A program made the translations under genes and the position numbers. From an uncultured Gammaproteobacteria bacterium (GTDB lineage Bacteria > Patescibacteriota > Patescibacteriia > Magasanikbacterales > UBA922), in contig CAYSXR010000006.1 in NCBI GenBank assembly GCA_964435035.1, positions 420 through 64,419 on the forward strand: a stretch of DNA of 64,000 nt, in the 5' to 3' direction. The notes beneath the pieces are model-generated. The model was given only the letters and a program-made list of their open reading frames with translations. It made no database searches and had not been told where the DNA came from. This document shows, one piece after another, positions 8,416-43,983 of this stretch; position 1 is the first letter of the stretch; every line of letters begins with the position of its first letter.

Positions 8416-8434
8416 AGTAAATATAAATTTACAA
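8416..8434. promoter_or_regulatory. Palindromic operator candidate GTAAATATAAATTTAC (copy 2)
   Basis: Second copy of the same palindrome in the divergent regulator / 8525-gene intergenic region. Confidence 0.35.
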
Positions 8435-8472
8435 GGTAGTACTAACGTAAGATAAGCATACATCATTTAACC

Positions 8473-8501
8473 TTGACAAAGAGGGTGTTTTGTGATATAA
8501 T
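8473..8501 (+). promoter_or_regulatory. Near-consensus sigma70 promoter (TTGACA-17-TGnTATAAT)
   Basis: Exact TTGACA and TATAAT with an extended -10 TG. It sits about 25 nt upstream of a GGAGG RBS and the ATG at 8525. Confidence 0.55.
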
Positions 8502-8524
8502 TTTTTGTCCTTACAACCAGGGAC

Positions 8525-26437: not shown

Positions 26438-26446
26438 GTGAATAGT

Positions 26447-27571
26447 TTAGAAAGCTTGGGTAAGCGAATACATCGGCATGATAATGGAAACTGCAATACC
26501 AGCAACACCTACGCCGAGTAAAATAATAATCACTGGTTCAATAATGGTTGAGAAATTCTTCATGGTTTTATCCACTTCATCTGAATAGAATGATGCGAGT
26601 TCCTGGAGTAAGTGGTCTATTTCACCTGTTTTTTCTCCCACCATTACCATTTCAGTTACCATTGGCGGAAATAGTTTGGGACTGGCAGCGAGTGTATCTG
26701 ATAATTGTTCACCTTTGGAAAGATTCTCCGTTGCACTGAGGAGTGCTCCGCTGTATCGAACATTCTTACATGTTTCGCCAGCAATGCGAACGGCATCAAC
26801 AATTGGAATAGTACTTTTGAGAAGAGATGATAATGTTATGGAAAATCGTGCAAGATTTACTTTTTTGGCAATGGCTCCAAAAATAGGTAAGTGAAGAATA
26901 ACACCGTGCATGAAATATCTAAAAGCAGTATTCTTTTTTATCATAACAATAAAGAGGATAACAAAGAGAGCGGTAAGACCAAGGACAAGTATTAGATTGA
27001 GAGGTTGTGAAAGAAAGTCGGTAATACCAATCAACACTTTGGTTGAGAGAGGAAGCTCAGCCTCGAATTCATCAAACATCGCAGTGAGCTTAGGAAGTAC
27101 CATCGTGACCATGAGTATTCCAATAATGAGAATCGCGCTTACAATCACTGAAGGGTAGATGAGTGCGCCTTTAACACTTGCAACGAGTGCATGATTTTTT
27201 TTCATCTGCACAACGACTTGATCGAGTGCGTCTTCGAGTTTTCCTGCGATTTCACCAGACGCAATCATTTTTGTTTGTAAATCAGGAAAAATTTTTGGGT
27301 AGAGCTTCAAACTATCACTCAGTTGATTTCCTTTTTCCACATGATCGGTAATTTCCTTTACAATGCGAGCAAATTTTTTGTTCTGTGCTTCCTTTGCGAG
27401 TACGTGCAATGCTTCAATGAGTGATAGTCCTGCATGAATCATGGTTTTCAAATGATCGAGAAAAAAAATACGATCGACCATGGAAATTTTTACATGTTGA
27501 GAACTAAAAAACTGGCGTGGTAGATGCGCTTCCTTTGACTGTGATGCATTTCGTAGTGCGGGATTTGCCAT
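26447..27571 (-). CDS. pilC: Type IV pilus platform protein PilC (GspF family)
   Basis: Two T2SS-F domains and 3 TM segments. 374 aa. Confidence 0.85.
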   Translation of the reverse strand: MANPALRNASQSKEAHLPRQFFSSQHVKISMVDRIFFLDHLKTMIHAGLSLIEALHVLAKEAQNKKFARIVKEITDHVEKGNQLSDSLKLYPKIFPDLQTKMIASGEIAGKLEDALDQVVVQMKKNHALVASVKGALIYPSVIVSAILIIGILMVTMVLPKLTAMFDEFEAELPLSTKVLIGITDFLSQPLNLILVLGLTALFVILFIVMIKKNTAFRYFMHGVILHLPIFGAIAKKVNLARFSITLSSLLKSTIPIVDAVRIAGETCKNVRYSGALLSATENLSKGEQLSDTLAASPKLFPPMVTEMVMVGEKTGEIDHLLQELASFYSDEVDKTMKNFSTIIEPVIIILLGVGVAGIAVSIIMPMYSLTQAF

Positions 27572-27575
27572 ATAA

Positions 27576-29336
27576 TTAGTCTTTGCTTGCGCGGAGTACT
27601 TCTTCGATAGTTGTCATACCTTGTTTTGCCTTGATCAGTCCATCTTGAAATAGAGTAAGCATGCCGTTTTTTATAGCGTGTGCTTTGATATCATTTGCAT
27701 TAGCTTTGGTATTAATAATTTTCTGAAGTTCTTCATCGATTACCATTACTTCATAAATTCCGATACGACCTTTGTATCCAGAGCCTTCACATTTTTTACA
27801 TCCTTTGCCTCGGTAAAAGGTAAGTGATTCAAGAGTTTTTTCTTTTGCGGTGAGCGTTGCTCCATGCTCTTTGAAAAGAGTAGTCATTTTTGATTTATCA
27901 ATGAGAGAATGTAGTTGTTTTAATTCTTTTGCTGTTAGTTTAAATGACTCTTTGCAATTGGGGCATATTTTTCTGACCAATCGCTGTGCAATAATAATAT
28001 TGGCGGTGAATGCTACCAAGAATGGCGGTATATCCATGTCGAGCAAACGAGGAATCGTTGTTGGCGCATCATTGGTGTGCAATGTTGATAATACTAAGTG
28101 TCCGGTCATGGCTGCGTGAATGGCGATTTCCGCAGTTTCCTTATCACGAATTTCTCCTACCATAATAATGTCAGGATCTTGGCGAAGGAACGAGCGAAGA
28201 CCTGAAGCGAAGGTAAATCCAGCTTTGGGATTGATCTGGCTTTGATTAATACCAGTCACATGATATTCGATCGGATCCTCAATCGTACAGATATTCACAT
28301 CTGGCTGATTAAGCATTCCTAATATGGAATAGAGTGTGGTAGTTTTTCCTGACCCTGTTGGACCAGTTACCAATACCATACCGTGTGGTTTTTCAATCGC
28401 CTCATCAACCAGCTCTTTGATTCCAGGTAAAAATCCAAGTTCATCGAGGGTTAATGGTTTTTGTCCTTCATGGAGAAGACGCATTACAATCTTTTCTCCG
28501 TCGTATACTGGAATGATCGAGACACGAAATGATAATGTTTCTCCTTGAACAGAGATTTTAAATCGTCCATCCTGCGGAATCATGTGTTCATCAATTTTTA
28601 AGTTTGATAAAATTTTAATTCGGGCAACAATACCACTCTGCACCGCTTTCGGTAAGTGCATCATTTCGCGTAGGATTCCATCAATACGAAATCGAACAAC
28701 CACATCGAGTTCTGTTGGTTCGATATGAATATCACTAGAGTTCTCGAATACCGAATGTTCAAGAATCGAGTTCACAATATTAATAATCGGAAGTTCCTCA
28801 GCAGCCTTTTTGAGGTCTGTTGGATCTGAATGTGCAAGCGGTTGACTCAGTTCTTGTTTGAGGTTTGATCGGTATCTACGTAATGCTTCCTTGGTTTCGC
28901 GAGGAGTGGTGATAAAGACTTCAAGATCTTTTCTACTTTTTCTTCGAATAAATTCGATGGTCTGTACGTCGGTCGGATCCGTAAGAGCGATTTTGAGAGA
29001 TGTTGGTGTGCTTTCAAATGCTACAATGTGGTGTGCTTCGGCAAATGCCTCAGGTAATTCATGTAATGTTTCAGAAGGAATATCGCGTCCTTTCAGGGAA
29101 ACTCGAGATAATCCATATTCTTCAGCAACCGCTTCGCATAGAGCATCTTCTTTGACCACATTCTTTTCAATCAGATATGTTTCCAAATCGCGACCCCGGT
29201 TCTGTGCATCTTCAAGATGGGTAGCAATTTGTGCTGCGGTTAATTTGAATTTTTTAGCAAGAAGTTTTTTGAACTCTTCCAAAGGTAACATAAGAAAGTG
29301 AGTTGATGCTCGACTAATCAGTGCATAGTATAGCAT
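27576..29336 (-). CDS. pilB: Type IV pilus assembly ATPase PilB (GspE family)
   Basis: Walker A VLVTGPTGSGKTTTLYS, Asp and His boxes, and a tetracysteine motif (CPNC...CKKCEGSG). Confidence 0.9.
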   Translation of the reverse strand: MLYYALISRASTHFLMLPLEEFKKLLAKKFKLTAAQIATHLEDAQNRGRDLETYLIEKNVVKEDALCEAVAEEYGLSRVSLKGRDIPSETLHELPEAFAEAHHIVAFESTPTSLKIALTDPTDVQTIEFIRRKSRKDLEVFITTPRETKEALRRYRSNLKQELSQPLAHSDPTDLKKAAEELPIINIVNSILEHSVFENSSDIHIEPTELDVVVRFRIDGILREMMHLPKAVQSGIVARIKILSNLKIDEHMIPQDGRFKISVQGETLSFRVSIIPVYDGEKIVMRLLHEGQKPLTLDELGFLPGIKELVDEAIEKPHGMVLVTGPTGSGKTTTLYSILGMLNQPDVNICTIEDPIEYHVTGINQSQINPKAGFTFASGLRSFLRQDPDIIMVGEIRDKETAEIAIHAAMTGHLVLSTLHTNDAPTTIPRLLDMDIPPFLVAFTANIIIAQRLVRKICPNCKESFKLTAKELKQLHSLIDKSKMTTLFKEHGATLTAKEKTLESLTFYRGKGCKKCEGSGYKGRIGIYEVMVIDEELQKIINTKANANDIKAHAIKNGMLTLFQDGLIKAKQGMTTIEEVLRASKD

Positions 29337-29562
29337 ATTTTTATATCACGTACTATGAGATTAAAAATTAAAGACTGAAGAATGAAGATTGATATAAAGG
29401 TATCCCATTTTTAATCTTTAATCTTCAATTTTTCCGTGCTAACCACTCTATTGACAAATACCTTATACATTGATATAGTCTCCGCGGTCGTAAAAATAAA
29501 ATTGGTGTCGTTTTAGTATCTAAAAATATTTAATTTAACGTGTATTTTGAAAGGTCAAAGTT

Positions 29563-30081
29563 ATGAAAAAGTATGAGATATTGTGCGTACTCCCAGGCAC
29601 ACTCGCTGAAGACGAGGTAGCTCCGATTGCTGCACAGATCGAAACTCAGCTCAAAGCGCATGGGGCTGAAGAAATCAAAAGAACCGATTTGGGTAAAAGT
29701 AGACTTGCATACCCAATGAAGCATATCCGATACGGATATTTTGAGTTTTTTACAATAGAGATTCTCCCGGAGAAAGTTCTGGCACTCGAACAGAGTATTA
29801 GACTTATTGGGGGTATCCTCCGAGTAGGAATCCAGGTACATGATTCCAAGCAAAAAAGTACGATTACTCTGGCTATCGACCCTACAGCCTTGAGTGCACC
29901 TCCAAAAGCTGATTTGCCTACTCGTTCGGGTCGACCTGAGGTTCGAAGAGAGCATAAAGAACGCCCTGAAGTAGTATCTGAAGAGAAAAAAGAGAGTGCT
30001 CCAGCTGAATCAAGTCTCAATTTGGAAAATATTGGTGAAAAGCTTGATGAGATATTGCAGAAAGATATTGATAAGGTATAA
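29563..30081 (+). CDS. rpsF: 30S ribosomal protein S6 (with C-terminal extension)
   Basis: MKKYEILCVL...SRLAYPMKHIRYGYF matches S6. The rpsF-ssb-rpsR operon order is present. Confidence 0.8.
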   Translation: MKKYEILCVLPGTLAEDEVAPIAAQIETQLKAHGAEEIKRTDLGKSRLAYPMKHIRYGYFEFFTIEILPEKVLALEQSIRLIGGILRVGIQVHDSKQKSTITLAIDPTALSAPPKADLPTRSGRPEVRREHKERPEVVSEEKKESAPAESSLNLENIGEKLDEILQKDIDKV

Positions 30082-30148
30082 TGAGAATAAGTCCTAGTCG
30101 TTCCCTAAACCAAGGAGGGTTCGGCACTTATTTATAACTCATTTCTCT

Positions 30149-30595
30149 ATGGACCTGAATCGAGCTATGATCCTCGGGCGTCTAACCCGGGATCCTGAAG
30201 TCAGAAGTACCCCTTCTGGTCAAAGTGTCGCAAATATCGGTGTAGCAACAAGCAGAGTGTGGAAAGATGCCTCAGGTACGCGTCAAGAGCGCCCTGAATA
30301 CCACAATGTGGTGTTATGGGGAAAGCTTGCAGACATCTCGGGCCAATATCTCGGAAAAGGACGTCGTGTGTATATCGAAGGACGTCTGGAAACGAGAGAA
30401 TGGACCGGTCAAGATGGTGTGAAACGCTATCGAACCGAGGTAATTGCAGAAAATCTAATTATGCTTGATGCGCCACGAGGTGGTGCAGGCAGCCAAGGAG
30501 AATCATTTGGAGGAGGAAAAGAAGAAGATGAGAGACCAAGTGCTCCAACAAGTGCCCCTGATGATGAAATAAAAGTAGAAGATATCCCGTTTTAA
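30149..30595 (+). CDS. ssb: Single-stranded DNA-binding protein
   Basis: An OB-fold N-terminus (NRAMILGRLTRDPEVR), a Gly-rich linker, and an acidic tail ending DIPF. Confidence 0.9.
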   Translation: MDLNRAMILGRLTRDPEVRSTPSGQSVANIGVATSRVWKDASGTRQERPEYHNVVLWGKLADISGQYLGKGRRVYIEGRLETREWTGQDGVKRYRTEVIAENLIMLDAPRGGAGSQGESFGGGKEEDERPSAPTSAPDDEIKVEDIPF

Positions 30596-30612
30596 TCAAC
30601 ATGAAGTAACGT

Positions 30613-30846
30613 ATGAATCCAGTGAAAAATCAAAAACTGAAAAAGCAAAAACAATGCTTCTTCTGTATCGACAAGAAAAAACATATTGATTACAAAGACA
30701 ATGAATCACTTCGCCGGTTTACCTCTTCATATATGAAGATCCAACCTCGACGAAGAAGTGGTCTCTGCGCAAAACACCAGCGTCAGATTGCACGAGCAAT
30801 CAAGCAGGCACGTATCGCAGGACTTCTCGCCTTTGTACCGAAATAA
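30613..30846 (+). CDS. rpsR: 30S ribosomal protein S18
   Basis: CFFCIDKKKHIDYKDNESLRRF plus a basic C-terminus. Confidence 0.85.
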   Translation: MNPVKNQKLKKQKQCFFCIDKKKHIDYKDNESLRRFTSSYMKIQPRRRSGLCAKHQRQIARAIKQARIAGLLAFVPK

Positions 30847-30862
30847 ATCTCAATAGAAGTTA

Positions 30863-30896
30863 AAACACTCTGACTCAAATCGGAGTGTTTTTTATT
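30863..30896 (+). terminator. Rho-independent terminator after rpsR
   Basis: AACACTC-tgactcaaatcg-GAGTGTT followed by TTTTTATTTT. Confidence 0.65.
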
Positions 30897-30904
30897 TTAA
30901 AAAA

Positions 30905-30960
30905 ATAGTAATTAACAACTAACAATTAACAAATGAAACTTTTTGTTCATTGTTAGTTGT
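30905..30960. promoter_or_regulatory. Imperfect inverted repeat upstream of the pilin operon
   Basis: AACAACTAACAATTAACAAATGAA ... TTCATTGTTAGTTGTT, followed by a TTGAAT ... TGgTATACT promoter-like sequence before 31021. Confidence 0.35.
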
Positions 30961-31020
30961 TCTGTGTTAGTTTGAATTTGTGGTATACTTATCAAAAATC
31001 TATAGTGAAAATAAAAAAAT

Positions 31021-31467
31021 ATGGAGACTGTAGAAAAAAATCATCATCTCGAAAGAGAAAAAAATAAAGAACGTAGAGAAGAAAAAGAAGGGGAAGTAAG
31101 TGAAGAATTAAAAGCTGCAGCTACGCGTGAACGAGCTGAATATCTCATAAAAGAAGTAAAAAGCACTACCAAGCAAGTACAGAATTTGGTACTGCATATT
31201 CAGCACGTGGTAGCAGCAATTAATGCACTGAAGACACAATTGCAACTAACTTCAAAAGAAGATCCATCCTCAGTGGTACAGGATGCAAAAATGGTAGGTG
31301 TATTAAAACAAAAGATTATTCAACATAAAAAAGAATTAGTAGAAATGAAGGAGGATTTAATAGAAGCACTGATGAAAGAAGAGGGGAATAAATCTCATAC
31401 AATAAAAACAAAGGAAGAGGTTGTGCAAATTGTTCAAAGAATTATGAATGAATTAAGTGTCGAGTAA
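31021..31467 (+). CDS. Hypothetical coiled-coil protein (Glu/Lys-rich)
   Basis: A 148-aa charged helical protein that is the first gene of the pilin operon. Confidence 0.4.
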   Translation: METVEKNHHLEREKNKERREEKEGEVSEELKAAATRERAEYLIKEVKSTTKQVQNLVLHIQHVVAAINALKTQLQLTSKEDPSSVVQDAKMVGVLKQKIIQHKKELVEMKEDLIEALMKEEGNKSHTIKTKEEVVQIVQRIMNELSVE

Positions 31468-31479
31468 CCGTTTTTTTGA

Positions 31480-33252
31480 ATGAAACTAAAGTCTACATTG
31501 AAAGGGTTTACTCTGATTGAGTCAGTCGTTGCACTCGGTATTTTTGGTCTATTTATCGTAGGAATTTATGGAAGTATTCAACTGAGTTTTTCGTTGGTGT
31601 ATCATTCGCGAGTGCGCATTTTGGCAACGGCGGTTCTGAATGAACAGATGGAAATCATACGGAACGTACCATTCGATAGCGTAGGAATTATTAATGGGAG
31701 TCCTTCGGGCGTATTCGAATATACTACAACTACTATTCGAAATGGAATGCATTTTGAAATCATTCGAACTATCCGGAATATTGATGATCCATTTGATGGT
31801 TTGATTGGAGGAATTCCTGCAGACACTGCGCCAAATGATTATAAATTTGTACAGATTGAGGCACGATGTGTTTCGTGTGATCAAGCTGAACCTTTCTCAA
31901 TGTATACCTATATTGCACCCAAATATCTCGAAGGCAATCTCAACCATGGTGCATTGTTTGTCCAGGTAATAGACGCTTATGGAAATCCGGTTACTGGTGC
32001 ATCGGTGACCGTAATTGCAACAAGTACTAATCCTTCCTACAATTTTGTTGATACTACTGATAATAATGGATTTTTGCGTATTTATGATTTAGCCACTGGT
32101 ACTGCAAAATATTTTATACAAGCTACAAAGACAGGTTACACGACAGATAAAACCTACGCACCGAGCTCGACCAACCCAAATCCCACAACCCCACACGTAA
32201 CGATTCTTCAGCAGGCAGTGAGCAATCTCACGCTTACTATTGATGAATTATCGAGTATAACCGTGGAAACAAAAAATGCACAATGTAATACGGCTCCAAA
32301 CGTTCCTTTCCAGATAAAAGGAAGTCGTGCGATTGGAGCAAATCCGAGTGTGTATCTGATAAATCAGAGTTATATAACTAATGGGAGTGGAGTGCAATCA
32401 AACTTGAATGTACCGTGGGATAGCTACGGTATGTCTGTGACGGGGTATGATCTTCTAGGGACTATTCCTGATGTACCCATGACCATATTACCTGGCGCAG
32501 TAGACGTGGGGACATTGATTGTTGGTCCAAACACGACACGATCATTAGTCATACTAGCTGAAAATCAATCAGCTCCTATTGCAAATGCAACGGTAACAAT
32601 TACGGGACCTAATGGATTTTCATCAGTGAAAACAACGGGGGTCGGAAGTATTTCACAGACGGACTGGTCACAAGGGTCAGGTATTGAAGATTTTGGTGAA
32701 GGACTCGGGTACAGTTCGGGAAGTGGAATTGATACACTTACGAGTCCAGGAAATCTCACACTTTCTCAAAATGGTAGTGTGTATGTTTCAAACGGATATC
32801 TCGAATCATCAACAATTGATACCGGAGAAAATGCGCGCTATATCATCTGGTCATGGAATCCAATGGCTCAATCACCTTCAACTACGATACGTTTTCAAAT
32901 GGCAACAAGTCCTTCGAGTACAGGACAAAACTGGGTGTTTCTAGGACCTGATGGAACGGAGAATACATACTTTACACAAAGTAGTGTACATATTTCTGAT
33001 GCTCATGATGGTGAGCAATACATGAGATATCGAGTGTATTTTGATACCCTCGATCCCACTGTTTCACCTCTGCTCTCTGATCTCACCTTTGTGTACACTA
33101 ATGCATGTACACCTCCGGGACAAGTCTATGTGGGAAATTTGGTTGCAGGAGAATATACGATTCGTATTGAAGCCCCAGGTTATGAAGTGTATGAGGAATT
33201 GTTTGAGGTAACAAGCGATCATTTTATTATTGCAGATCTTAATTCTGTATGA
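31480..33252 (+). CDS. Large type IV pilin-like protein with carboxypeptidase-regulatory-like beta-sandwich repeats
   Basis: Class III prepilin signal (K-G|FTLIESVVALGIFGL). Repeated Ig-like modules (GASVTVIATSTN...GFLRIYDLATGTAKYFIQATKTGY; NLVAGEYTIRIEAPGYEVYEE). Confidence 0.7.
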   Translation: MKLKSTLKGFTLIESVVALGIFGLFIVGIYGSIQLSFSLVYHSRVRILATAVLNEQMEIIRNVPFDSVGIINGSPSGVFEYTTTTIRNGMHFEIIRTIRNIDDPFDGLIGGIPADTAPNDYKFVQIEARCVSCDQAEPFSMYTYIAPKYLEGNLNHGALFVQVIDAYGNPVTGASVTVIATSTNPSYNFVDTTDNNGFLRIYDLATGTAKYFIQATKTGYTTDKTYAPSSTNPNPTTPHVTILQQAVSNLTLTIDELSSITVETKNAQCNTAPNVPFQIKGSRAIGANPSVYLINQSYITNGSGVQSNLNVPWDSYGMSVTGYDLLGTIPDVPMTILPGAVDVGTLIVGPNTTRSLVILAENQSAPIANATVTITGPNGFSSVKTTGVGSISQTDWSQGSGIEDFGEGLGYSSGSGIDTLTSPGNLTLSQNGSVYVSNGYLESSTIDTGENARYIIWSWNPMAQSPSTTIRFQMATSPSSTGQNWVFLGPDGTENTYFTQSSVHISDAHDGEQYMRYRVYFDTLDPTVSPLLSDLTFVYTNACTPPGQVYVGNLVAGEYTIRIEAPGYEVYEELFEVTSDHFIIADLNSV

Positions 33253-33872
33253 GTGTTTCTAGACAAAGTAAAAATTACTTTCGTGGTATGAGCCTGCTTG
33301 AGGTGATGGTAGTACTTGGAATCACGATGATTGTATTGCTCGGAGCAACCTCTTTTATTATATTGAGTTTTCGTAATCAGCGTATACTCAATGACCAGCT
33401 ATTTGGACAAAAAGATGCTCGTCGAGTAATTTCTGAAATGGTAAACACCATTAGAACTGCCGAAGAATCAAGTATTGGTTCATATCCGGTTGCAGAAGCT
33501 ACCACTTCATCTCTTACCGTGTACGCAAATATTGATGGGGATAGTTTACGCGAACGAGTACATTATTGGTTATCAGGAACTGATTTGAAAAGAGGAATAT
33601 TAAAACCAAGCGGTAATCCTTTGAGTTATACAGGTCAGGAACAGGTGACGACGATCGCAAGTTATGTACAGAATGCAAATAGAGGTACTCCAACATTTCA
33701 ATATTTTACAGAAAGCTATACGGGGTCGCAAAGTGCAATGACTCTACCAATTACGATTACGAATATTCGAATGATACAAATTATTATTGAGATTGAAAAA
33801 GATCAGACCAAGAGTCCAGTACCACTCCGAGTGGAATCGCTCACTCAAATTAGAAATCTGAAAACAAATTGA
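33249..33872 (+). CDS. Type IV pilin/pseudopilin-like protein
   Basis: Prepilin leader ending FRG|MSLLEVMVVLGITMIVLLG. 207 aa. Confidence 0.65.
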   Translation: MSVSRQSKNYFRGMSLLEVMVVLGITMIVLLGATSFIILSFRNQRILNDQLFGQKDARRVISEMVNTIRTAEESSIGSYPVAEATTSSLTVYANIDGDSLRERVHYWLSGTDLKRGILKPSGNPLSYTGQEQVTTIASYVQNANRGTPTFQYFTESYTGSQSAMTLPITITNIRMIQIIIEIEKDQTKSPVPLRVESLTQIRNLKTN

Positions 33873-35507: not shown

Positions 35508-36344
35508 ATGAAGAAAGTTCGTAAAGGTGTAATCACTGTTGCAGGCTTAGGCACGCGGTTTCTTCCTGCTACCAAAGCCATGCCAAAAGAAATGTTGCCG
35601 GTACTTGATAAACCAGTACTTCAATATATTGTAGAAGAAATGGTAGCAAGTGGAATCACTGAAATTATTTTTGTTACTAGTTCACAAAAGCGGGCGATAG
35701 AAGATCATTTTGATCGAGATCGTGATTTTGAAGCATATCTGGAAAGCCAGGGAAAACTCGACCGTATACAATCTCTCATAGATCTAAGTGAAAAAGTACG
35801 ATTTTTTTATACCAGACAAGCTGAACCACGAGGTAACGGACATGCATTATTGTGCGCAAAAGAGTTTGTTGGAGATGAACCATTCGCATTTTCAGATGGA
35901 GATAGTATTATTGATGCCAAAACTCCGGTAATAAAGCAGCTGTTAGATATTTTTTATAAAAAGAAAGCTTCGGTAATCGGTGTTCAAAAAATGGAAGATA
36001 CCGAAGAAATGAGAAAGTACGGTAATGTATATGGGAAGCCGCTGGGGAAAGGTGTCTATCGAGTAAATGAATTTCGTGAAAAACCTCCTCTCGATGGAGT
36101 TTCTCCTATGGGTCTGATTGTAGGCGGAATGCGCTATATTTTCACCAATGATATTTGGAAAATTCTTGATTCTCAAGGAGAAGGAAAAGATGGGGAAATT
36201 TGGCTCTCAGACGCAGCAAATACACTAGCCTCAAAAAAGAAATTTTTTGCGTATGAATATGAGGGAGAATATTTTGATACGGGAAATAAAATAGCGTTAC
36301 TGAAAACTGCAATTCATTTTGCCGAGAAAGAGGGTTTACTCTGA
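35508..36344 (+). CDS. galU: UTP--glucose-1-phosphate uridylyltransferase
   Basis: KGVITVAGLGTRFLPATKAMPKEMLPV N-terminal signature. 278 aa. Confidence 0.85.
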   Translation: MKKVRKGVITVAGLGTRFLPATKAMPKEMLPVLDKPVLQYIVEEMVASGITEIIFVTSSQKRAIEDHFDRDRDFEAYLESQGKLDRIQSLIDLSEKVRFFYTRQAEPRGNGHALLCAKEFVGDEPFAFSDGDSIIDAKTPVIKQLLDIFYKKKASVIGVQKMEDTEEMRKYGNVYGKPLGKGVYRVNEFREKPPLDGVSPMGLIVGGMRYIFTNDIWKILDSQGEGKDGEIWLSDAANTLASKKKFFAYEYEGEYFDTGNKIALLKTAIHFAEKEGLL

Positions 36345-36369
36345 TTCGACCTTACACCTTTTAGATAAT

Positions 36370-37110
36370 ATGAAAAAATGGAAGTGGATATTGATTATAC
36401 TATTAGGAATTTTTGTTACAGGTGGAGCCCCTCATGTGAATGCTCAGATTGGGGAGGCGTGTACAGCTCCACAAGACTGTATTGATCCTGGACTTGAGTG
36501 CATCAATGGTTTCTGTGCGGTGCCTGCAGTGGCAGGAGGTGTGGCGTGTTATCTGGCAAGTAGTAAAACCTGTAGTCAGGCAGAAGCATCAATAGATTTT
36601 TGTATCTCACCCAATCAAAGATTTGATTCGGTATCACTCTGTGAGACATATAGACAAGAACAAAACGCACAAAACACGTATCCGATCGGAGCATGTCGGT
36701 GTGGAAATCAATGTATAAAATATGGGGAAAGTGGTCCAGGGGGGAGTACTGTGACACCTGGGAATTGTGGGACGTGTACGGAAAAAGCAAGTTTTGAAAA
36801 ATGTATTGAAGAAGTGACTCGTGAATCATCATCGTCTACACCACTCTCAGAATATGCGGACCAACTCAATAAACTCAAAGTTGATAATGTACAAGATCTG
36901 ATTGGAATTATTGTTCGAGGAGTCATGGGAGTCATTGGAACTGTTGCATTAGTAATGATGCTCTATGGGGGTATTACCTGGATGACAGCGCGAGGAAATT
37001 CAGAGAGTACGCAGAAAGCTCGTGAGACAATACTATGGGCAGGTCTAGGAATTGTGTTAATTTTTGCAAGTTACGCCCTAGTGGATTTCGTGTTCGAGAT
37101 ATTTCGATAG
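36370..37110 (+). CDS. TrbC/VirB2-like pilin paralog a (Cys-rich ectodomain)
   Basis: A signal/TM helix and a Cys-rich 170-aa head, then the conserved C-terminal domain MLYGGITWMTARGNSESTQKARETILWAGLGIVLIFASYALVDFVF. Confidence 0.6.
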   Translation: MKKWKWILIILLGIFVTGGAPHVNAQIGEACTAPQDCIDPGLECINGFCAVPAVAGGVACYLASSKTCSQAEASIDFCISPNQRFDSVSLCETYRQEQNAQNTYPIGACRCGNQCIKYGESGPGGSTVTPGNCGTCTEKASFEKCIEEVTRESSSSTPLSEYADQLNKLKVDNVQDLIGIIVRGVMGVIGTVALVMMLYGGITWMTARGNSESTQKARETILWAGLGIVLIFASYALVDFVFEIFR

Positions 37111-37184
37111 TTTTCTGGTGGTCTGGTTTACTAGTTTTCTAGTAAAAGAGAAAAATGGTGGTTATAACCAGATAACTAGACAAC
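37109..37184. repeat. Dispersed motif copy 2 (two partial copies in inverted orientation)
   Basis: AGTTTTCTGGTGGTCTGGTTTACTAGTTTTCTAGT and AACCAGATAACTAGACAAC. The palindrome TTTACTAG-TTTT-CTAGTAAA lies within it. Confidence 0.5.
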
Positions 37185-37188
37185 AAGT

Positions 37189-37208
37189 CCTGCCTGCCGG
37201 CAGGCAGG
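37189..37208 (+). terminator. GC hairpin CCTGCCTGCCGGCAGGCAGG (second copy)
   Basis: Identical core to 35363..35384. It follows pilin paralog a. Confidence 0.5.
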
Positions 37209-37229
37209 AAACTAGAAAACTAAAATTTT

Positions 37230-38606
37230 ATGAAAAAACGAATTCTCATCTCTCTATTAATGATCATGGTTCTAACTATATCCGGTTTTGGTTGCAAAGG
37301 TTTAACTGTACAAGAACAGTCAGCTGTCAAAGGAGTTACTTTGAACTATTGGACCGTATTTAATGATGTGAATGAACTGAAGAAATATGCAGCAGAATAC
37401 AAAGCAATGCGTCCACAAGTAACGATCAACATTCGTCAGGTTCGATACGAAGAATTTGATACCTTGTTTACCAATGCGCTGGCAGATGACGTGGGTCCCG
37501 ATGTTGTGTCTATGCATGTTCGTTGGCTTCGTAAAAATCAGAATAGATTGTCTGCGGCACCTGCGAGTGTGCAGGTACCTCGTTTGATAGAAAAAAATAA
37601 ATATACCAAAGAAAAGGCTGTAGTAATCGATACGGTACCATTGCCTCGAGAGCGGGATATTCGAAATGAGTATGTGCAGTCGGTACACAAGGACGCCGTA
37701 ATCGATGGGCAAATTTATGGATTCCCGATTGCATTTGATTCTCTAGCATTATTTTACAATCAGACACTGCTCGATCGAGCAGGAATTGCCGAGGCGCCTA
37801 CTACCTGGGAAGAATTTGTGGAGGCCGTACAAAAAACTACCAAATTTAATTCAACTCTTGATATCACTCAGTCAGGGGTAGCGCTGGGTACTTCGAATAA
37901 TATTGATAATTTTTTTGACATTGTTTCACTCTTTATGATGCAGAGTGGTGTCATTCCCGTAAGTCAGAATTCAGTTACTTTCGCCGCGGGTGTTGACCGT
38001 GCGCAGGATCGATCACACCCGATGCTCCGTGCGCTAGATTTCTATACCGGATTTGCACGTGCTACTGCTGATCGATATAGCTGGAATGAGAAACAACAAA
38101 ATGCATTTGATGAATTTGTACGAGGGAAAAGTGCCTTTTTCCTAGGGTTTGCCTATGATTATCCACGGATCAAAGAACGGGCACCACAGCTGGATATCCA
38201 GATTACAACCGTACCACAACTGAATCCAAGTTCACCTTCCAATGTTGCAAACTATTGGCTCGAATCAGTAGTAAAGAAATCAAAATACCAGAATGAAGCA
38301 TGGGATTTTGTACGGTTTATTAGTTCAAAAGAAAAAGTAAAAACCTATACAGCAGCGACCTTTAGACCAAGTCCATACCGAGAGCAGATTGCAGAGCAGC
38401 AAAAGGATGAAACGATGGAGCCTTTTGCAACACAGGCACTTTTTGCTGATAATTGGTATCGAGGTCGGGAAAGTGATATTGCAGTTTCAACCATGAAAGA
38501 TTTGATTACCGAATTTTTGAGACCAGGAAATACTGATCAGGAAGTGCTCAAAAAAGATAAGACGGTGATTTTGAATGGTGCCGCAAAGATTCAACAAACG
38601 TATTAA
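37230..38606 (+). CDS. Extracellular solute-binding lipoprotein (ABC transporter SBP family 1), orphan
   Basis: A lipoprotein signal (LTISGFGC) and an SBP_bac_1-like sequence. No permease or ATPase genes are nearby. It is embedded in the pilin array. Confidence 0.6.
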   Translation: MKKRILISLLMIMVLTISGFGCKGLTVQEQSAVKGVTLNYWTVFNDVNELKKYAAEYKAMRPQVTINIRQVRYEEFDTLFTNALADDVGPDVVSMHVRWLRKNQNRLSAAPASVQVPRLIEKNKYTKEKAVVIDTVPLPRERDIRNEYVQSVHKDAVIDGQIYGFPIAFDSLALFYNQTLLDRAGIAEAPTTWEEFVEAVQKTTKFNSTLDITQSGVALGTSNNIDNFFDIVSLFMMQSGVIPVSQNSVTFAAGVDRAQDRSHPMLRALDFYTGFARATADRYSWNEKQQNAFDEFVRGKSAFFLGFAYDYPRIKERAPQLDIQITTVPQLNPSSPSNVANYWLESVVKKSKYQNEAWDFVRFISSKEKVKTYTAATFRPSPYREQIAEQQKDETMEPFATQALFADNWYRGRESDIAVSTMKDLITEFLRPGNTDQEVLKKDKTVILNGAAKIQQTY

Positions 38607-38610
38607 ACAT

Positions 38611-39729
38611 ATGGTTCGATTTTTGAAATATACCTTACTAACTTTTGTCTGCATAAGCGCTTCATTATTTGCGTCAGGAGTGCAGGCTGCAGATCCGCCA
38701 CTTGGAGATTTCAAATGTCCGATGTTTGCCGTAGAAGGTAAAAAATTATCAATTTTTTTATTAACAAGTATTGAGAGCGAAGACACGGTAGAAGTACCTC
38801 CGAGTAATCGATTTTTTTGTGTTGAAACAAGTGTTGATGCTACTACAGTGACCTGGGGAGATTTGACCAAAGGAAAAGATAGAAATGGAGCAATTGCAAT
38901 ATACCCTCAGTGGGGTAGTGGTGGAGCTGATGTGCGACCACAATATTTTACCACCTGTTTACTAGATAGTAGTGATAAATGGCATGATACCGGAGTAGGA
39001 GCTGATGTTAAGCCATCTGATCAAATATATAGCTTAAGTAAGACTGCATCACATTGTGATAAATCAAATGCTAGGTTACGGTATTATCTAAATGAATTAG
39101 TGGGTTCTCCTGAACTGTATTTGTATTATATTAAGCCAGCTCTCCCAGGTGAACAGCAGGAAAATCCAATTGCGGCATGTGAAGCGTCTAGAGGTACAAG
39201 TAAACAAGCCTGTGAAGCAAATTCAAAGTGTTTTTGGTCCATTCCTAACCTTTGTCTGGCAAAAGCTGATCCGGGAATAGATTGTACGAAGTTATCATTA
39301 ACGGAATGTTCCGCTGCAAATTATTGCACATCAGAAAATAATAAATGTGTAAAGAAAACAACTCAGGTGGAGGTGTCAAAAGCGATTGATCAGTATATTG
39401 AGGATCGGTATTCCAAGCCAAAAGACTATACAGGACCGCTACCCAAATGCGCATTTACTGGTTCATGTCGCAACGTAGAAGATTTGGTTCAAGTAGGTGT
39501 AAATGTGGCAACTTGGCTATTTGGTATTATCGCAGGTCTTGGATTTGCTTTCTTTGTGTATGGTGGGCTCACCATGGTTTTATCATTTGGAAATTCAGAA
39601 AAAGTGGGACAAGGAAAACAAATATTGGTGGCAGCAACGGTTGGTATGATCATCGCATTTTCAGCATATGTATTGGTGAGTTTTGTGGTAAAAGCGATCG
39701 GAATAAATCCTAATTTAGCACCGTTTTAA
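38611..39729 (+). CDS. TrbC/VirB2-like pilin paralog c (large Cys-rich ectodomain)
   Basis: A signal helix and a roughly 290-aa Cys-rich head, then the conserved domain FFVYGGLTMVLSFGNSEKVGQGKQILVAATVGMIIAFSAYVLVSFV. Confidence 0.6.
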   Translation: MVRFLKYTLLTFVCISASLFASGVQAADPPLGDFKCPMFAVEGKKLSIFLLTSIESEDTVEVPPSNRFFCVETSVDATTVTWGDLTKGKDRNGAIAIYPQWGSGGADVRPQYFTTCLLDSSDKWHDTGVGADVKPSDQIYSLSKTASHCDKSNARLRYYLNELVGSPELYLYYIKPALPGEQQENPIAACEASRGTSKQACEANSKCFWSIPNLCLAKADPGIDCTKLSLTECSAANYCTSENNKCVKKTTQVEVSKAIDQYIEDRYSKPKDYTGPLPKCAFTGSCRNVEDLVQVGVNVATWLFGIIAGLGFAFFVYGGLTMVLSFGNSEKVGQGKQILVAATVGMIIAFSAYVLVSFVVKAIGINPNLAPF

Positions 39730-39734
39730 TTCGT

Positions 39735-40130
39735 ATGAAAAATAGGACAAAGTTATTAGTCGGGATTATAATAATTATGTTTGGCACTCTCATAAGTGCT
39801 AGTAATTTTCAATTAGCTTTGGCCTCAAGTACACCAACGATTGGTTGCCGTGAAGGGCAGGATTGTGTATCACTTACTAATCCCCTTAATGAAACAGATA
39901 TTAAAAAGATTATTGGAAATAGTATTGGGGTTATCATGGGGATTGCTGGCTCAATCACCTTCGTAGTATTCGTATACGGGGGCCTCCTCTGGCTCACCTC
40001 AGCAGGAAATTCTGAAAGGATTCAGAAGGGTTTGCAAGCTATGCTCTGGGCTGGGATTGGAATTATTGTGATTTTCAGTAGCTATGCTATAATTACGTTG
40101 ATTTTAACGACATTACAAGCATCGCCGTAA
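39735..40130 (+). CDS. TrbC/VirB2-like pilin paralog d
   Basis: 131 aa with the conserved domain VFVYGGLLWLTSAGNSERIQKGLQAMLWAGIGIIVIFSSYAII. Confidence 0.65.
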   Translation: MKNRTKLLVGIIIIMFGTLISASNFQLALASSTPTIGCREGQDCVSLTNPLNETDIKKIIGNSIGVIMGIAGSITFVVFVYGGLLWLTSAGNSERIQKGLQAMLWAGIGIIVIFSSYAIITLILTTLQASP

Positions 40131-40286
40131 GTGAGAACGGAAGAAAGTGAAAATAAAGTGTTTCTTTAACTATAAAATTGAAGATTATAATCTTTACTCT
40201 CAGCTGTGAAATAAGATTCATGAGCTGGTGGTCCAATGTAAGTACAACGTTATGCAAAACTTGCAATTGAAGGGGGGTGAGGAAGT

Positions 40287-40727
40287 ATGAAAAACATACA
40301 AGCAAAATTACTAAAGCATAGAAATATCGTGCTTGGTATTGTAGCTTTTGTAAGCGTGTTTGCATTCGCACCGGTACAGGTAGCACTAGCGACAACGCCG
40401 CCACCTGCATCAGCAGCAGATCCAGATAACTTCGGTCTTAACCCTTTGGATAGTTTAACGATCCAAACCGATACAAAAGATGCACGAGAAGTGATTATTG
40501 ATATCATCAATCTCGCGTTAACGTTTCTTGGTTTGATCGCTGTTATTTTGATCCTCTGGGGTGGTTTCAAGTGGATGACCGCTGGAGGAAACGACGAGAA
40601 TGTAGAAGCAGCGAAAAAGATTATTATTGCTGCAGTGATTGGTCTCGCGATCATTCTATCTGCATACGCAATTGCTAATTTCTTTATCAGTTCCATTGGA
40701 ACAGCTGTAGATGTAGATCTTACGTAG
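40287..40727 (+). CDS. TrbC/VirB2-like pilin paralog e
   Basis: LILWGGFKWMTAGGNDENVEAAKKIIIAAVIGLAIILSAYAIANFF. Confidence 0.65.
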   Translation: MKNIQAKLLKHRNIVLGIVAFVSVFAFAPVQVALATTPPPASAADPDNFGLNPLDSLTIQTDTKDAREVIIDIINLALTFLGLIAVILILWGGFKWMTAGGNDENVEAAKKIIIAAVIGLAIILSAYAIANFFISSIGTAVDVDLT

Positions 40728-40819
40728 TTGTTTGCTGGCGCCCCTCCGGGTGTCAGAGCTTTCACTGGTCAAAAAATTTTCGGGTGGCCAGGTTAGCTTT
40801 GACTCTCATACATTCATAT

Positions 40820-41275
40820 ATGAATAACAAGTTGATTCTCGCAACTCTCTTCTCAGGTATTTTTTTTGCTCTGACCGTAGCTTTATTTCCGGTAAAATCT
40901 CTGGCACAAGGTTGCGATGGGCAACAGGGCGAGGGTGACCTCCTCGGACTCGATTGTGCAGGAACACAGTATTCAGGGCTGAGTGCGGAAGATCCACGTA
41001 TTATTACTGTGCGTATTATCAATTTCGCCTTGAGTCTATTAGGAATAGTTGCAATAATTATCATCCTATATGCGGGCTTCACCTGGATGACGGCGGGGGG
41101 AAATGATGAGAAAGTGGGAAGTGCGAAGAAGATACTAGGTGCTGCGGTGATGGGGCTCATAATTATCTTGGCATCATACTCTATTATGAGTTTTGTATTA
41201 CGCTCTCTCTGTGAGACTATTGGTACCTCATGTGGAAATCAATACTCTTCAGGATCATCAGGCTATTCTCCATGA
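40820..41275 (+). CDS. TrbC/VirB2-like pilin paralog f
   Basis: IILYAGFTWMTAGGNDEKVGSAKKILGAAVMGLIIILASYSIMSFV. The start was chosen at MNNKLIL. Confidence 0.6.
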   Translation: MNNKLILATLFSGIFFALTVALFPVKSLAQGCDGQQGEGDLLGLDCAGTQYSGLSAEDPRIITVRIINFALSLLGIVAIIIILYAGFTWMTAGGNDEKVGSAKKILGAAVMGLIIILASYSIMSFVLRSLCETIGTSCGNQYSSGSSGYSP

Positions 41276-41294
41276 AATTAATCAATTTTTTCTT

Positions 41295-41864
41295 ATGAAA
41301 AAAGTGTATTTACTTATCGGTCTTATCGCAGCATTCTCAGTTTTCGCTTTCGGCACTACAGTTCTTGCTGGTGATTTTGGGCTCAAAGATACGGCACGTG
41401 CTGCAAAACTCGATACCTACGGAGATAGTGTTCCAACTATTGCAGGAAACGTGATTGGAACCCTGCTTTCGATGATTTCAGTGTTATTCTTTGTACTCGT
41501 ACTCTATGGAGGTATTCTCTGGATGACGGCACGTGGAAGCTCAGAGAATACCGAAAAAGCCTTAAATACCATTATTGCGGCGACGATTGGTATTATCATT
41601 GTTATGGGAGCATACGCCCTTACTAACTTTGTGTTTAAGCTTGGGACAAATACTGGAGGAAATAATGTTGAAACACCTGTTAGCCCCGCGTTATGTGGAA
41701 ATGGTCAAATTGATCCGGGTGAACAATGTGATGGAGATTCTGAGTGTACTAGTAGTTGTACTATTATCCCCGGTACTTCACTTTGTGGAAATGGTCAAAT
41801 TGATCCGGGTGAACAATGTGATGGAGATTCTGAGTGTACTAGTAGTTGTACTATTATCCCTTAG
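41295..41864 (+). CDS. TrbC/VirB2-like pilin paralog g with C-terminal duplicated Cys-rich module
   Basis: The conserved domain comes first (VLYGGILWMTARGSSENTEKALNTIIAATIGIIIVMGAYALTNFVF), then 2x LCGNGQIDPGEQCDGDSECTSSCTIIP. The start was chosen at MKKVYLL. Confidence 0.6.
   Translation: MKKVYLLIGLIAAFSVFAFGTTVLAGDFGLKDTARAAKLDTYGDSVPTIAGNVIGTLLSMISVLFFVLVLYGGILWMTARGSSENTEKALNTIIAATIGIIIVMGAYALTNFVFKLGTNTGGNNVETPVSPALCGNGQIDPGEQCDGDSECTSSCTIIPGTSLCGNGQIDPGEQCDGDSECTSSCTIIP
41691..41864 (+). repeat. Perfect ~90-bp tandem duplication inside paralog g
   Basis: TGTGGAAATGGTCAAATTGATCCGGGTGAACAATGTGATGGAGATTCTGAGTGTACTAGTAGTTGTACTATTATCCC occurs twice with a 13-nt spacer. It is in frame and encodes a 30-aa module twice. 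Confidence 0.85.
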
Positions 41865-41883
41865 ACAAAAATTAGTTAGAATT

Positions 41884-42261
41884 ATGATCGAAGCTGTAAA
41901 AAGAAAATACAAAATTTTAACTTTAATTTTACCTCTTTTAGTACCTGGTAAAATATACGCCAAAAAAACCATCGAAGATGCTAGTTCAGCACTTGAATCC
42001 GCCGTAGGACCTACCGGACTACCACAAAACGAAATATCAACATATATTGGATCAGTCGCGCAGTGGTTGTTTGGAATATTAGGTCTTCTATTCTTTGTCC
42101 TCACGCTCTATGCAGGAATCACGTGGTTTCTCGCTCGTGGAGAAGAAGAAAAAATTACAAAATCACGTCAAACACTTATCGCAGCAGTTATTGGGTTGAT
42201 AATCACCGTGAGTGGGTATGCTATCGCCAGTTTTATTACAAATGCAATCAACTTCGGATAG
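41884..42261 (+). CDS. TrbC/VirB2-like pilin paralog h
   Basis: TLYAGITWFLARGEEEKITKSRQTLIAAVIGLIITVSGYAIASFI. The ORF-track N-terminal extension from 41575 reads through the upstream repeat in another frame and is likely artefactual. Confidence 0.6.
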   Translation: MIEAVKRKYKILTLILPLLVPGKIYAKKTIEDASSALESAVGPTGLPQNEISTYIGSVAQWLFGILGLLFFVLTLYAGITWFLARGEEEKITKSRQTLIAAVIGLIITVSGYAIASFITNAINFG

Positions 42262-42276
42262 TAATTTGAACTAGTT

Positions 42277-42669
42277 ATGAAAATCATTAATACGATAAAA
42301 CAATTCTGGGTACGAGGAGTTCTTGTGTCACTCAGTATTGCTGCACTGCCAAGTCGAGCGTGGGGACAAGGAAATCTGGGTAATGCAGACGATAATCTTG
42401 AGAATCTACAAAAGGGTATTGGAGGGAATGTGCCAACCGACTTAACTGTCGTGGTAGGAAATGTGATAAAAACAGTATTGAGTCTGGTAGGTATTATATT
42501 TCTAGTGCTTACGGTCTACGCAGGATATCTCTGGATGACTGCACGTGGAGAAGACGAACAAGTGAGTAAGGCAAAAGAAATTATCAAGTCATCAATCATG
42601 GGTCTGTTTATCGTGGTATCATCATACGCAATCACCGTGTTTATTACTTCACGATTTAGTGGTCAATAA
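42277..42669 (+). CDS. TrbC/VirB2-like pilin paralog i
   Basis: TVYAGYLWMTARGEDEQVSKAKEIIKSSIMGLFIVVSSYAITVFI. Confidence 0.65.
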   Translation: MKIINTIKQFWVRGVLVSLSIAALPSRAWGQGNLGNADDNLENLQKGIGGNVPTDLTVVVGNVIKTVLSLVGIIFLVLTVYAGYLWMTARGEDEQVSKAKEIIKSSIMGLFIVVSSYAITVFITSRFSGQ

Positions 42670-42670
42670 T

Positions 42671-43081
42671 ATGAAAAAACTACAAACCGTTAAAATTTTT
42701 TTGTTAGCCGCTCTTCTATTTTCTGGTTTATTGGGTACTACAGTTTATGCTCAAAATCTCGGTATCGATGATGTACATAAAGCGGGGACACAGGCGGGGT
42801 TTACGCAAGCTACAGAGACCACCTTGGCGGAAAACATTGGTAGGCTGATTACCGTGCTATTTTCAGTGTTAGGGGTATTATTTACGGTACTCATTGTATA
42901 CGCTGGATATCTCTGGATGATGGCGCGAGGGGATGATGAGCAAGTTACTAAGTCAAAAAATATTATGGGTAGAGCTGTAATAGGACTCATCATTCTCATG
43001 TCAGCATATAGTATTACCCGATTTGTAGTACCACGAGTACTGGAAGGATCGGTAAATACCTCAACCACTTCTACCCCATAA
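42671..43081 (+). CDS. TrbC/VirB2-like pilin paralog j
   Basis: IVYAGYLWMMARGDDEQVTKSKNIMGRAVIGLIILMSAYSITRFV. An ATG start at 42671 was chosen over the overlapping GTG at 42659. Confidence 0.65.
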   Translation: MKKLQTVKIFLLAALLFSGLLGTTVYAQNLGIDDVHKAGTQAGFTQATETTLAENIGRLITVLFSVLGVLFTVLIVYAGYLWMMARGDDEQVTKSKNIMGRAVIGLIILMSAYSITRFVVPRVLEGSVNTSTTSTP

Positions 43082-43086
43082 AAAAT

Positions 43087-43500
43087 ATGCAAAAAATGAA
43101 AGGATTAGTTGTGCACTTACTATTTACTTCATTTCTAATCTTCGGAGTATTTGTTTTTTCATCCTCATCAGCTTTGGCGACAACTACAGGACCAGACATC
43201 ATGGGGCAACTAAATGCAGGATCACAGGCTGCTGGATATGGTACCGAAGCACAAGATATTCGTATTACTGTTGCAAAAGGAATCCAGTTACTACTGTCTT
43301 TTTTGGGTATTATTTTTGTAGTGTTAACCGTATATGCTGGTTTTCTGATCTTCACTGCAGCTGGAAATGAGGAAAATCTATCAAAAGCAAAAAAAATCAT
43401 TGGCTATGCAGTGATTGGTTTTATTATTATTCTGTCTGCATACAGTATTACCAGTTTTGTGACCAGTCGAATTGTTGCAGAAACGATGGGTCAGCAATAG
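43087..43500 (+). CDS. TrbC/VirB2-like pilin paralog k
   Basis: TVYAGFLIFTAAGNEENLSKAKKIIGYAVIGFIIILSAYSITSFV. Confidence 0.65.
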   Translation: MQKMKGLVVHLLFTSFLIFGVFVFSSSSALATTTGPDIMGQLNAGSQAAGYGTEAQDIRITVAKGIQLLLSFLGIIFVVLTVYAGFLIFTAAGNEENLSKAKKIIGYAVIGFIIILSAYSITSFVTSRIVAETMGQQ

Positions 43501-43509
43501 ACTTGAAGT

Positions 43510-43983
43510 TTGAATATGAAAAAAATAAAAAAAATGATAGTAGGTGCTATGTTTGTACTCGGAATACTTTTTTCAAGTATGCCTAGTTTGGTGTTTGCTA
43601 CCAATCCATCGACACAGAAACCGGGGCAATTTCAAGGTTCAGAAATGGAAGAGCAACTCAATGCATTTGGTGGAGATAAAGGCGGGAAACTAACGTATAG
43701 TGATCCGAGAATAATGGTGGCAAAGCTTATCAAAACATTTTTAGGTGTGTTGGGAATTATCGCAGTTGCGCTAGCGCTCTATGCAGGGTTTGTGATAATG
43801 ACGTCTAGTGGTAATGAAGAAAAAATCGAGACGGGGAAGAAAATTTTGATGTATTGCGTAACAGGTACCGCGGTAATACTCGGGGCGTACAGTATTACGT
43901 ACTTTATATATATGGGTTTGTATGGAAGTATCAATAATCCTATAACGCCCGGATATAATGATTCATATCCTGATGAATTCTAA
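43510..43983 (+). CDS. TrbC/VirB2-like pilin paralog l
   Basis: ALYAGFVIMTSSGNEEKIETGKKILMYCVTGTAVILGAYSITYFI. Confidence 0.65.
   Translation: MNMKKIKKMIVGAMFVLGILFSSMPSLVFATNPSTQKPGQFQGSEMEEQLNAFGGDKGGKLTYSDPRIMVAKLIKTFLGVLGIIAVALALYAGFVIMTSSGNEEKIETGKKILMYCVTGTAVILGAYSITYFIYMGLYGSINNPITPGYNDSYPDEF

Follow-up and report, generated by a model that had tools for sequence, protein, structure and literature searches.

An array pilin of a Magasanikbacterales bacterium with a strain-variable cysteine-rich tail and two identical tail modules

Gene g, the sixth pilin of an array of VirB2/TrbC-like paralogs (a, b-e and g-l), was analysed in a 64,000-nucleotide stretch of DNA (the window; positions 420 to 64,419 of contig CAYSXR010000006.1, assembly GCA_964435035.1) that is assigned to Magasanikbacterales, UBA922. 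The gene encodes a conserved pilin core followed by a cysteine-rich tail, and the tail contains two short modules identical over 77 nucleotides (Table 1). The results suggest that gene g is a tail-bearing array pilin, that its tail belongs to a cassette which is exchanged between strains, that the two modules were recently homogenised and that the tail would act as an exposed surface part. A probability of about 0.68 is given to this reading as a whole.

Probable exchange of the tail between strains

The window was compared with related loci (labelled L) and proteins (labelled P). The blastn alignments with the close relatives L001 and L006 showed 89% identity up to positions 41653-41659, and homology was regained with 86-94% identity from 41954-41958. 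A sharper picture was obtained from the strain pair L005 (JGI sample 3300014773, Ga0119928_1000007) and L089 (the Logan assembly of SRR30502285), which are 98.4% identical over 8344 nucleotides as far as the ..NFVF codons ending the g core. Past the g core the two loci have 750 and 396 nucleotides, respectively, without homology, and then return to 99.0% identity from about 80 nucleotides into gene h, the next pilin paralog. The tail of L005 consists of three perfect copies of a 36-residue 'QWCL' module and that of L089 of a short module, a canonical module and a cap; of the two arrays, only the g tail differs in this way.

The swapped block always takes in the start of the h signal peptide (41884-41953 in the window, 9015-9094 in L005 and 8658-8740 in L089). 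In three close relatives the h signal peptides are unrelated and the mature h proteins are near-identical. Among the 14 orthologs compared, unrelated tails are joined to cores of 92-100% identity, and the best matches to the window tail were found in proteins with more distant cores (83-87%). In these comparisons the tail, the spacer and the signal-peptide region of h behave like one cassette passed between strains, most likely through recombination in the conserved flanking pilin sequences. The tail type is accordingly uncoupled from the phylogeny of the core.

Judged from the aligned loci, tails change mainly by replacement of the whole cassette and not by stepwise duplication. The first-pass annotation of the window had taken the repeat in gene g for a snapshot of how such ectodomains expand by module duplication. 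Modules were amplified repeatedly in this family, but wholesale replacement dominates, and the perfect duplication itself is minor beside it. No description of a sharply bounded, strain-level tail replacement in a pilin array of the Candidate Phyla Radiation (CPR) was found in the available papers on these pilins.

The comparison of the array with L001 revealed four homology gaps, all over predicted ectodomains, namely those of pilins a, b and d and the tail of g. The three other gaps (36341-36675, 38607-39332 and 40106-40500) have flanks of 84-90% identity; they correspond to the N-terminal, Cys-rich ectodomains of pilins a and b and to a stretch that takes in the end of c and the N-terminal part of d.

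The DNA of the short module was found to be 88-89% identical to L003 (8403-8476) and L008 (3136-3203), with pilin cores of only about 74-75% identity. Among the two-fold codons, 0 of 11 differ in the module against 7 of 12 (p=0.005) and 6 of 13 in the core, and the four- and six-fold codons are equally diverged. The comparison of synonymous divergence is ambiguous as to an exchange of the short module between lineages.

Table 1. Features of gene g, its tail and the surrounding pilin array (window coordinates)
Feature	Position	Strand	Basis or remark
Array of 11 VirB2/TrbC-like pilin paralogs (a, b-e, g-l)	36370..43983	+	ORFs and motifs; g is the sixth pilin
Gene g, 189-residue tail-bearing pilin-like protein	41295..41864	+	ORF; identical to database protein P0001
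Predicted signal peptide of g, residues 1-25, MKKVYLLIGLIAAFSVFAFGTTVLA	41295..41369	+	Hydrophobic segment and AF2 helix 2-23; predicted cleavage site
Conserved pilin core, residues 44-113	41424..41633	+	PF18895 match; hydrophobic helices 46-79 and 85-119, loop ARGSS
Gly/Thr/Asn/Pro-rich core-tail linker, KLGTNTGGNNVETPVSPA	41637..41690	+	Sequence; similar low-complexity linkers in nearly all orthologs
Hypervariable cassette: g tail, 19-nucleotide spacer and signal-peptide start of gene h	41660..41953	+	Homology lost against closest relatives and regained on both sides
Short Cys-rich module, copy 1, CGNGQIDPGEQCDGDSECTSSCTIIP	41694..41770	+	4 Cys; TRF and repeat search
Inter-module linker, unique 13 nucleotides	41771..41783	+	Third base of Pro codon, then GGT ACT TCA CTT (GTSL)
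Short Cys-rich module, copy 2	41784..41860	+	77/77 nucleotides as in copy 1; TAG stop right behind at 41862-41864
Gene h, next pilin paralog	41884..42261	+	First ~23 codons within the variable cassette

Sequence and origin of the tandem repeat

The repeat search of the window gave two copies of the short module with 77 of 77 nucleotides identical and a spacing of 90. Tandem Repeats Finder (TRF) reported a single array (41694-41860) with a period of 90, 1.9 copies, 100% matches and no indels. By blastn no further copy of the 77-nucleotide unit was found anywhere in the window, and an exact repeat of this length cannot have arisen by chance in 64 kb. Both copies are in frame within the open reading frame (ORF) of 189 residues, and at the protein level 27 identical residues (LCGNGQIDPGEQCDGDSECTSSCTIIP) recur with a period of 30 residues. 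The 13-nucleotide linker CGGTACTTCACTT (...GTSL) is matched neither 5' of copy 1 (TAGCCCCGCGTTA) nor 3' of copy 2 (TTAGACAAAAATT), the outer flanks having 4/13 identities with it by eye. The Leu preceding and the Pro following each module are the same residues with different codons (TTA versus CTT and CCC versus CCT). Of the perfect 90-bp tandem duplication described earlier, the reading frame, the period of 90 and the identity over about 77 nucleotides hold, but 13 of the 90 nucleotides are not repeated. On the sequence evidence the repeat is genuine and it is recent. Scans of genome and metagenome contigs with exact and degenerate patterns revealed no other copy of the module DNA and no module of the L003 type, and the exact-protein look-up of P0001 gave no record.

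The origin of the identity was analysed using the related loci. The locus of P0006, L171, reads module, ..GGA ACT TCA GTC (GGTSV), module, and the linker of the window reads GGT ACT TCA CTT; the two modules of L171 are identical at only 43 of 77 nucleotides (56%). In the multiple alignment the second module of the window falls opposite the canonical module of P0004, P0005 and P0008 and, in P0006, opposite a second short module that has diverged. The module-GTS-module layout and its linker seem to be older than the split of the window and L171 lineages. As this layout occurs in L171 with diverged modules, gene conversion is likelier than a new duplication, and it would also explain the unduplicated linker. 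Two older modules, already in tandem, would then have been homogenised very recently, most likely via gene conversion, and this course is most likely when ranked against a fresh duplication followed by further rearrangement. The zero substitutions in 77 nucleotides agree with the very recent event of the first-pass annotation, although a homogenising conversion of old modules fits better than the duplication which was proposed there.

The comparison with orthologues revealed that module amplification recurs, whereas the two-module layout of L171 points to an old tandem. The positional ortholog of g in L005 has a perfect in-frame repeat at 8431-8754 (108 bp, 3.0 copies, 100%) of a different four-Cys module of 36 residues (QWCLTAENTCVQGGGGPCSGTIQPSETACNAARANT), followed by a 253-nucleotide spacer to the next gene. 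A tail repeat of 48 bp (2.6 copies, 89%) is present in L138, and older, diverged module duplicates occur in P0007, P0014, P0006 and L073. Beyond L005 and L138, no high-identity tail repeat was found among about 170 related loci (about 580 kb in total), so that perfect or near-perfect module repeats are recurrent but rare. For a repeat family whose members usually stand in tandem, the duplication in gene g is nothing unusual.

A fresh one-step tandem duplication of one ancestral module, through replication slippage or unequal crossing-over, would likewise leave no substitution in 77 nucleotides, and it is in accordance with the perfect amplification in L005 and with the close relatives L006 and L001, which have one short module or none. 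Such an event should however repeat all 90 nucleotides, while 13 in each period are unmatched on the outer flanks and the boundary Leu and Pro codons differ; in addition, the distant ortholog L171 has the same layout with matching linker codons and diverged modules. A one-step origin is considered unlikely on this balance. Still less credit is given to an assembly artefact, in which the repeat would have been resolved wrongly or two coexisting strain variants of the cassette joined into a chimera. The sequence comes from a single assembly of the metagenome-assembled type, the 77-nucleotide repeat exceeds many assembler k-mers, the locus is polymorphic between strains (L005 and L089), and L013 (the UBA922 contig DBDW01000009.1) breaks off precisely where the module found in triplicate in L005 begins, the repeat apparently having interrupted that assembly. 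Against this, the unique linker preserves the frame, the ORF closes with a clean stop and the layout is colinear with L171. An over-traversed loop of the assembly graph cannot create the linker, and reads running through module, linker and module must therefore exist, so an artefact is very unlikely.

Programmed variation, whether as a high-frequency copy-number (contingency) repeat, from silent donor cassettes or as the target of a diversity-generating retroelement, is the most improbable of the explanations considered, even though perfect repeats in surface proteins are typical of contingency loci and the tail is hypervariable between strains. Two copies of a 90-nucleotide period lend themselves poorly to slippage when set beside classical contingency repeats; only 2 of the about 170 related loci have high-identity tail repeats. 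By blastn and tblastn, neither this tail module nor any other has a silent copy elsewhere in the 64-kb window, which rules out the silent-cassette donor model within the window. A retroelement target was also rejected, as the copies are adjacent, identical at every adenine and both coding in one frame; no reverse-transcriptase search was made. The preferred reading is the recent conversion between two older tandem modules.

Nature of the cysteine-rich module

The isolated tail was matched by NCBIfam TIGR02232 (cysteine-rich acidic repeat) with 21.5 bits at a cutoff of 20.8, and PF13948 (DUF4215) gave 8.5-12.8 bits at a cutoff of 27. The canonical TIGR02232 repeat is present with 55-61 bits in the tails of the orthologs P0003, P0004, P0005 and P0008. 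In P0004, P0005 and P0008 it directly follows a short module resembling that of g, which HMMER reported as a second stretch. The P0004 tail matched pappalysin-2 and pappalysin-1 chains of the PDB with E=1.5e-8 to 3e-6. The alignment by hhalign of a profile from 19 short modules with one from 14 canonical modules gave a probability of 97.9% (E=5.5e-13) with four Cys matched. The sole gap in this alignment comprises five residues and lies in the DDGN..GDGC centre; by this five-residue deletion the full-length TIGR02232 repeat with its DDGNxxxGDGC centre is absent from the g module. According to these profile comparisons, the g module is a variant, five residues shorter, of the widespread and normally tandem TIGR02232/DUF4215 repeat, and two disulfides are probably formed per module.

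At E<=0.001, the exhaustive HMMER search with the 60-residue tail matched 993 proteins. As many as 31 stretches were matched in a single protein, and many of the proteins are long tandem arrays of modules of about 29-30 residues. Pure arrays of the short module of about 29-30 residues were seen in P0069 (8 copies) and in P0076 and P0090 (3 each). The word-indexed protein search with the 63-residue tail alone gave no match. P0076 (408 residues) is an unrelated surface-type protein in which three short CGND modules are combined with a signal peptide and a hydrophobic segment at the C-terminus; modules 2 and 3 are identical over 24 residues, which is another module homogenisation in this repeat family.

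A resemblance to EGF-like or other small disulfide domains had been suggested for testing. The disulfide-type character is supported by the four cysteines in the sequence, but the EGF-like assignment was not borne out by the HMM search and a short TIGR02232/DUF4215 variant was found instead. No EGF match was obtained in Pfam at E<=10, and the module has four Cys, not six. An LDL-receptor class A module was rejected as well: Ldl_recept_a did not match at E<=10, the module has four Cys and no DxSDE, and the match to an LRAD3 chain of the PDB was weak (E=0.009).

Pilin core, topology and domain order

The Pfam family PF18895 (T4SS_pilin) matched gene g over profile positions 3-71 of 71 with 31.7 bits (cutoff 26.6, E=1.6e-7), and all tested orthologs of g are also above the cutoff. 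NCBIfam Mbov_0395, a pilin-like conjugal transfer protein, gave a sub-threshold match. By family name gene g is thus placed among the VirB2/TrbC-like pilins, a role in a type IV secretion system (T4SS) not being demonstrated by the name itself. The AlphaFold2 (AF2) model from 33 homologs showed helices at 2-23, 46-79 and 85-119 and a loop at 80-84 (ARGSS), with a predicted local distance difference test (pLDDT) score of 63-85 in the core. The hydropathy scan agrees with this model in giving a signal peptide and two hydrophobic helices. The core is under strong purifying selection, with a nonsynonymous divergence (dN) of 0.013-0.10 and a synonymous divergence (dS) from 0.5 to saturated.

A cleaved signal peptide followed by a two-helix hairpin with a basic loop leaves both mature ends outside. 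In gene g the signal peptide would place the N-terminus outside, and the two helices would fold into a hairpin whose Arg-containing loop faces the cytoplasm. With the loop cytoplasmic, the C-terminal tail would therefore be exposed on the cell exterior or, should the protein polymerise, on the surface of the filament. As both mature ends would point outward, N-terminal and C-terminal ectodomains would therefore be topologically equivalent.

The order of the domains was compared among the paralogs and orthologs. In a crude segmentation, the N-terminal ectodomains of pilins a and b comprise about 150-270 residues and contain 14 Cys each. The N-terminal part of gene g is short and lacks Cys, and its tail has 73 residues with 8 Cys. 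That the conserved pilin module comes first in gene g and the repeat modules after it was confirmed by the position of the PF18895 match. The statement that every other paralog has its variable part first is essentially right within the window, as a and b illustrate, except for paralog e (40820-41275), which has a C-terminal tail of about 20 residues with two Cys. Nearly all of the 66 g relatives retrieved have a core, a Gly/Ser/Thr/Pro linker and a tail of 50-190 residues, and in nearly all of them the number of Cys in the tail is even (4-28), likewise in GTDB representative genomes. The positional orthologs of g in syntenic loci are also built with the core first and the Cys-rich tail last. 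The reversed domain order is therefore no oddity of this one gene, since nearly all examined g relatives share it, and across the relatives compared the core-first, tail-last order is a trait of the g subfamily.

Assessment of the evidence

Several results weigh against the reading proposed here. In the whole gene g protein, TIGR02232 reached only 17.6 bits (cutoff 20.8) and covered profile positions 3-16 of 38. AF2 gave no reliable structure for the tail, with a pLDDT of 36-60 (below 50 in the full-protein model); the tail alone, modelled from a 9-row alignment, had a mean pLDDT of 51.7. The Foldseek search of the full AF2 model against the PDB gave no match at E<=0.001, the best (E=2.1) being to generic helical hairpins. 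None of the 10 large ORFs scanned in the window is VirB4 or VirD4; PilB, PilC, PilM and N_methyl pilins are encoded nearby. The linker shared with L171 amounts to four codons only, and the repeat with its copy number rests on one assembly in the genome, metagenome and protein collections searched.

Array and genomic neighbourhood

A solute-binding-protein gene (37230-38606) interrupts the array after the first pilin, and in L001, L003, L005 and L089 the corresponding gene (SBP_bac_1/SBP_bac_8) has the same placement. The order of the array is common to five other genomes (L001, L003, L005, L089 and L171), with PF18895 on every member: NTP_transferase, a pilin, SBP_bac_1 and ten pilins are followed by MGDG synthase, Band_7 and a Xer-type integrase on the other strand. 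The homologs are labelled Candidatus Magasanikbacteria or Patescibacteria in their sources. The promoter and terminator scan around gene g gave results no better than shuffled controls.

Type IV pilus (T4P) genes lie just upstream of the array (25331-33872). PilM (25331-26437), PilC/T2SSF (26447-27571) and PilB/T2SSE (27576-29336) are on the minus strand, and two N_methyl pilins (31480-33252 and 33249-33872) are on the plus strand. The 590-residue N_methyl protein also has a CarboxypepD_reg (PF13620) module, a combination that PMC8179133 lists among the modular type IV pilins. Among the related loci, L071, L149 and L150 have at 232-1084, upstream of the ortholog, a tandem repeat of 430 bp (2.0 copies, 89%) that is probably a duplicated pilin gene segment, and L139 has at 380-655, also upstream, one of 138 bp (2.0 copies, 96%) with no open frame.

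Functional significance and comparison with known systems

The CPR or Patescibacteria, to which this ultrasmall bacterium belongs, account for much of bacterial diversity and are regarded as living attached to host cells. VirB2-like pilins are essential in the sole genetically tractable CPR member (PMC10633639). In the array described here, one position has, in nearly all relatives examined, a Cys-rich tail that is predicted to be exposed and that is swapped whole between strains with 98-99% identical flanks. The conserved hairpin core would anchor or polymerise the protein, and the tail would be a strain-specific ligand- or host-binding part, or another exposed surface part, under diversifying selection. 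A strain-specific binding or recognition surface is the best inference for the exposed tail, in line with the host adaptation suggested for CPR pilin arrays, and the g tail is a concrete candidate for a determinant of host or partner specificity. It is proposed only tentatively that the sixth array gene is a modular VirB2-type pilin whose tail is a host-recognition (or phage- or predator-exposed) determinant, kept diverse by cassette exchange and reshaped within by duplication and gene conversion of its modules. Both break points, one where the pilin core ends and one behind the h signal peptide, may serve as a simple comparative marker.

VirB2-like pilin arrays of 2-11 paralogs were described in CPR bacteria, for which a role in host adaptation was suggested, and a pilin gene lies near virB4 in 1,135 of the 1,948 CPR assemblies having both (bioRxiv 10.1101/2025.01.22.634366). 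A pilin series in a T4SS cluster is essential in Southlakia epibionticum (PMC10633639). The array of the window shares with the published ones the family PF18895, the tandem arrangement (11 members here, 2-11 published) and highly divergent paralogs, but it adjoins type IV pilus genes and not virB4. Neither the C-terminal Cys-rich modular tail nor its strain-level replacement is described in bioRxiv 10.1101/2025.01.22.634366 or PMC10633639, and no paper combining Patescibacteria, VirB2 and cysteine-rich was found in the library searched. Multiple VirB2 paralogs are reported for Bartonella and Anaplasma, here taken from their citation in bioRxiv 10.1101/2025.01.22.634366; like flagellins, they are counted among surface proteins in which a conserved region for assembly is combined with an exposed region that can be exchanged.

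The TIGR02232/PF13948 repeat occurs in proteins of Myxococcus and in pappalysin-1/2 (PDB 8sl1, 7ufg and 8a7d). The g module shares with it the CGNGxxxxGExCD start, four aligned Cys, the acidic character and the tandem occurrence in secreted proteins. It differs in the five residues missing from the DDGN..GDGC centre, and the cutoff is reached for the isolated tail only. The bacterial repeat is not mentioned in the paper on PAPP-A evolution (PMC11925022).

Modular type IV pilins such as PilB of Streptococcus sanguinis, with many CPR examples reported (PMC8179133), have the same design of a small pilin carrier, a short linker and a C-terminal effector displayed outside. Their signal peptide is of class III and their assembly depends on a T4P machine, whereas g is a two-helix hairpin of the VirB2/TrbC type; their effectors are vWA or lectin domains, whereas that of g consists of two tiny disulfide modules with a putative adhesion function only. 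The tail-bearing pilin g would be the VirB2-type counterpart of these modular pilins. Flagellins (PMC7018530) likewise combine a conserved polymerisation or anchoring part with an extremely diverse exposed part that is uncoupled from the core. In g, by comparison, the variable part is appended at the C-terminus, and the exchanged block reaches into the signal peptide of the next gene.

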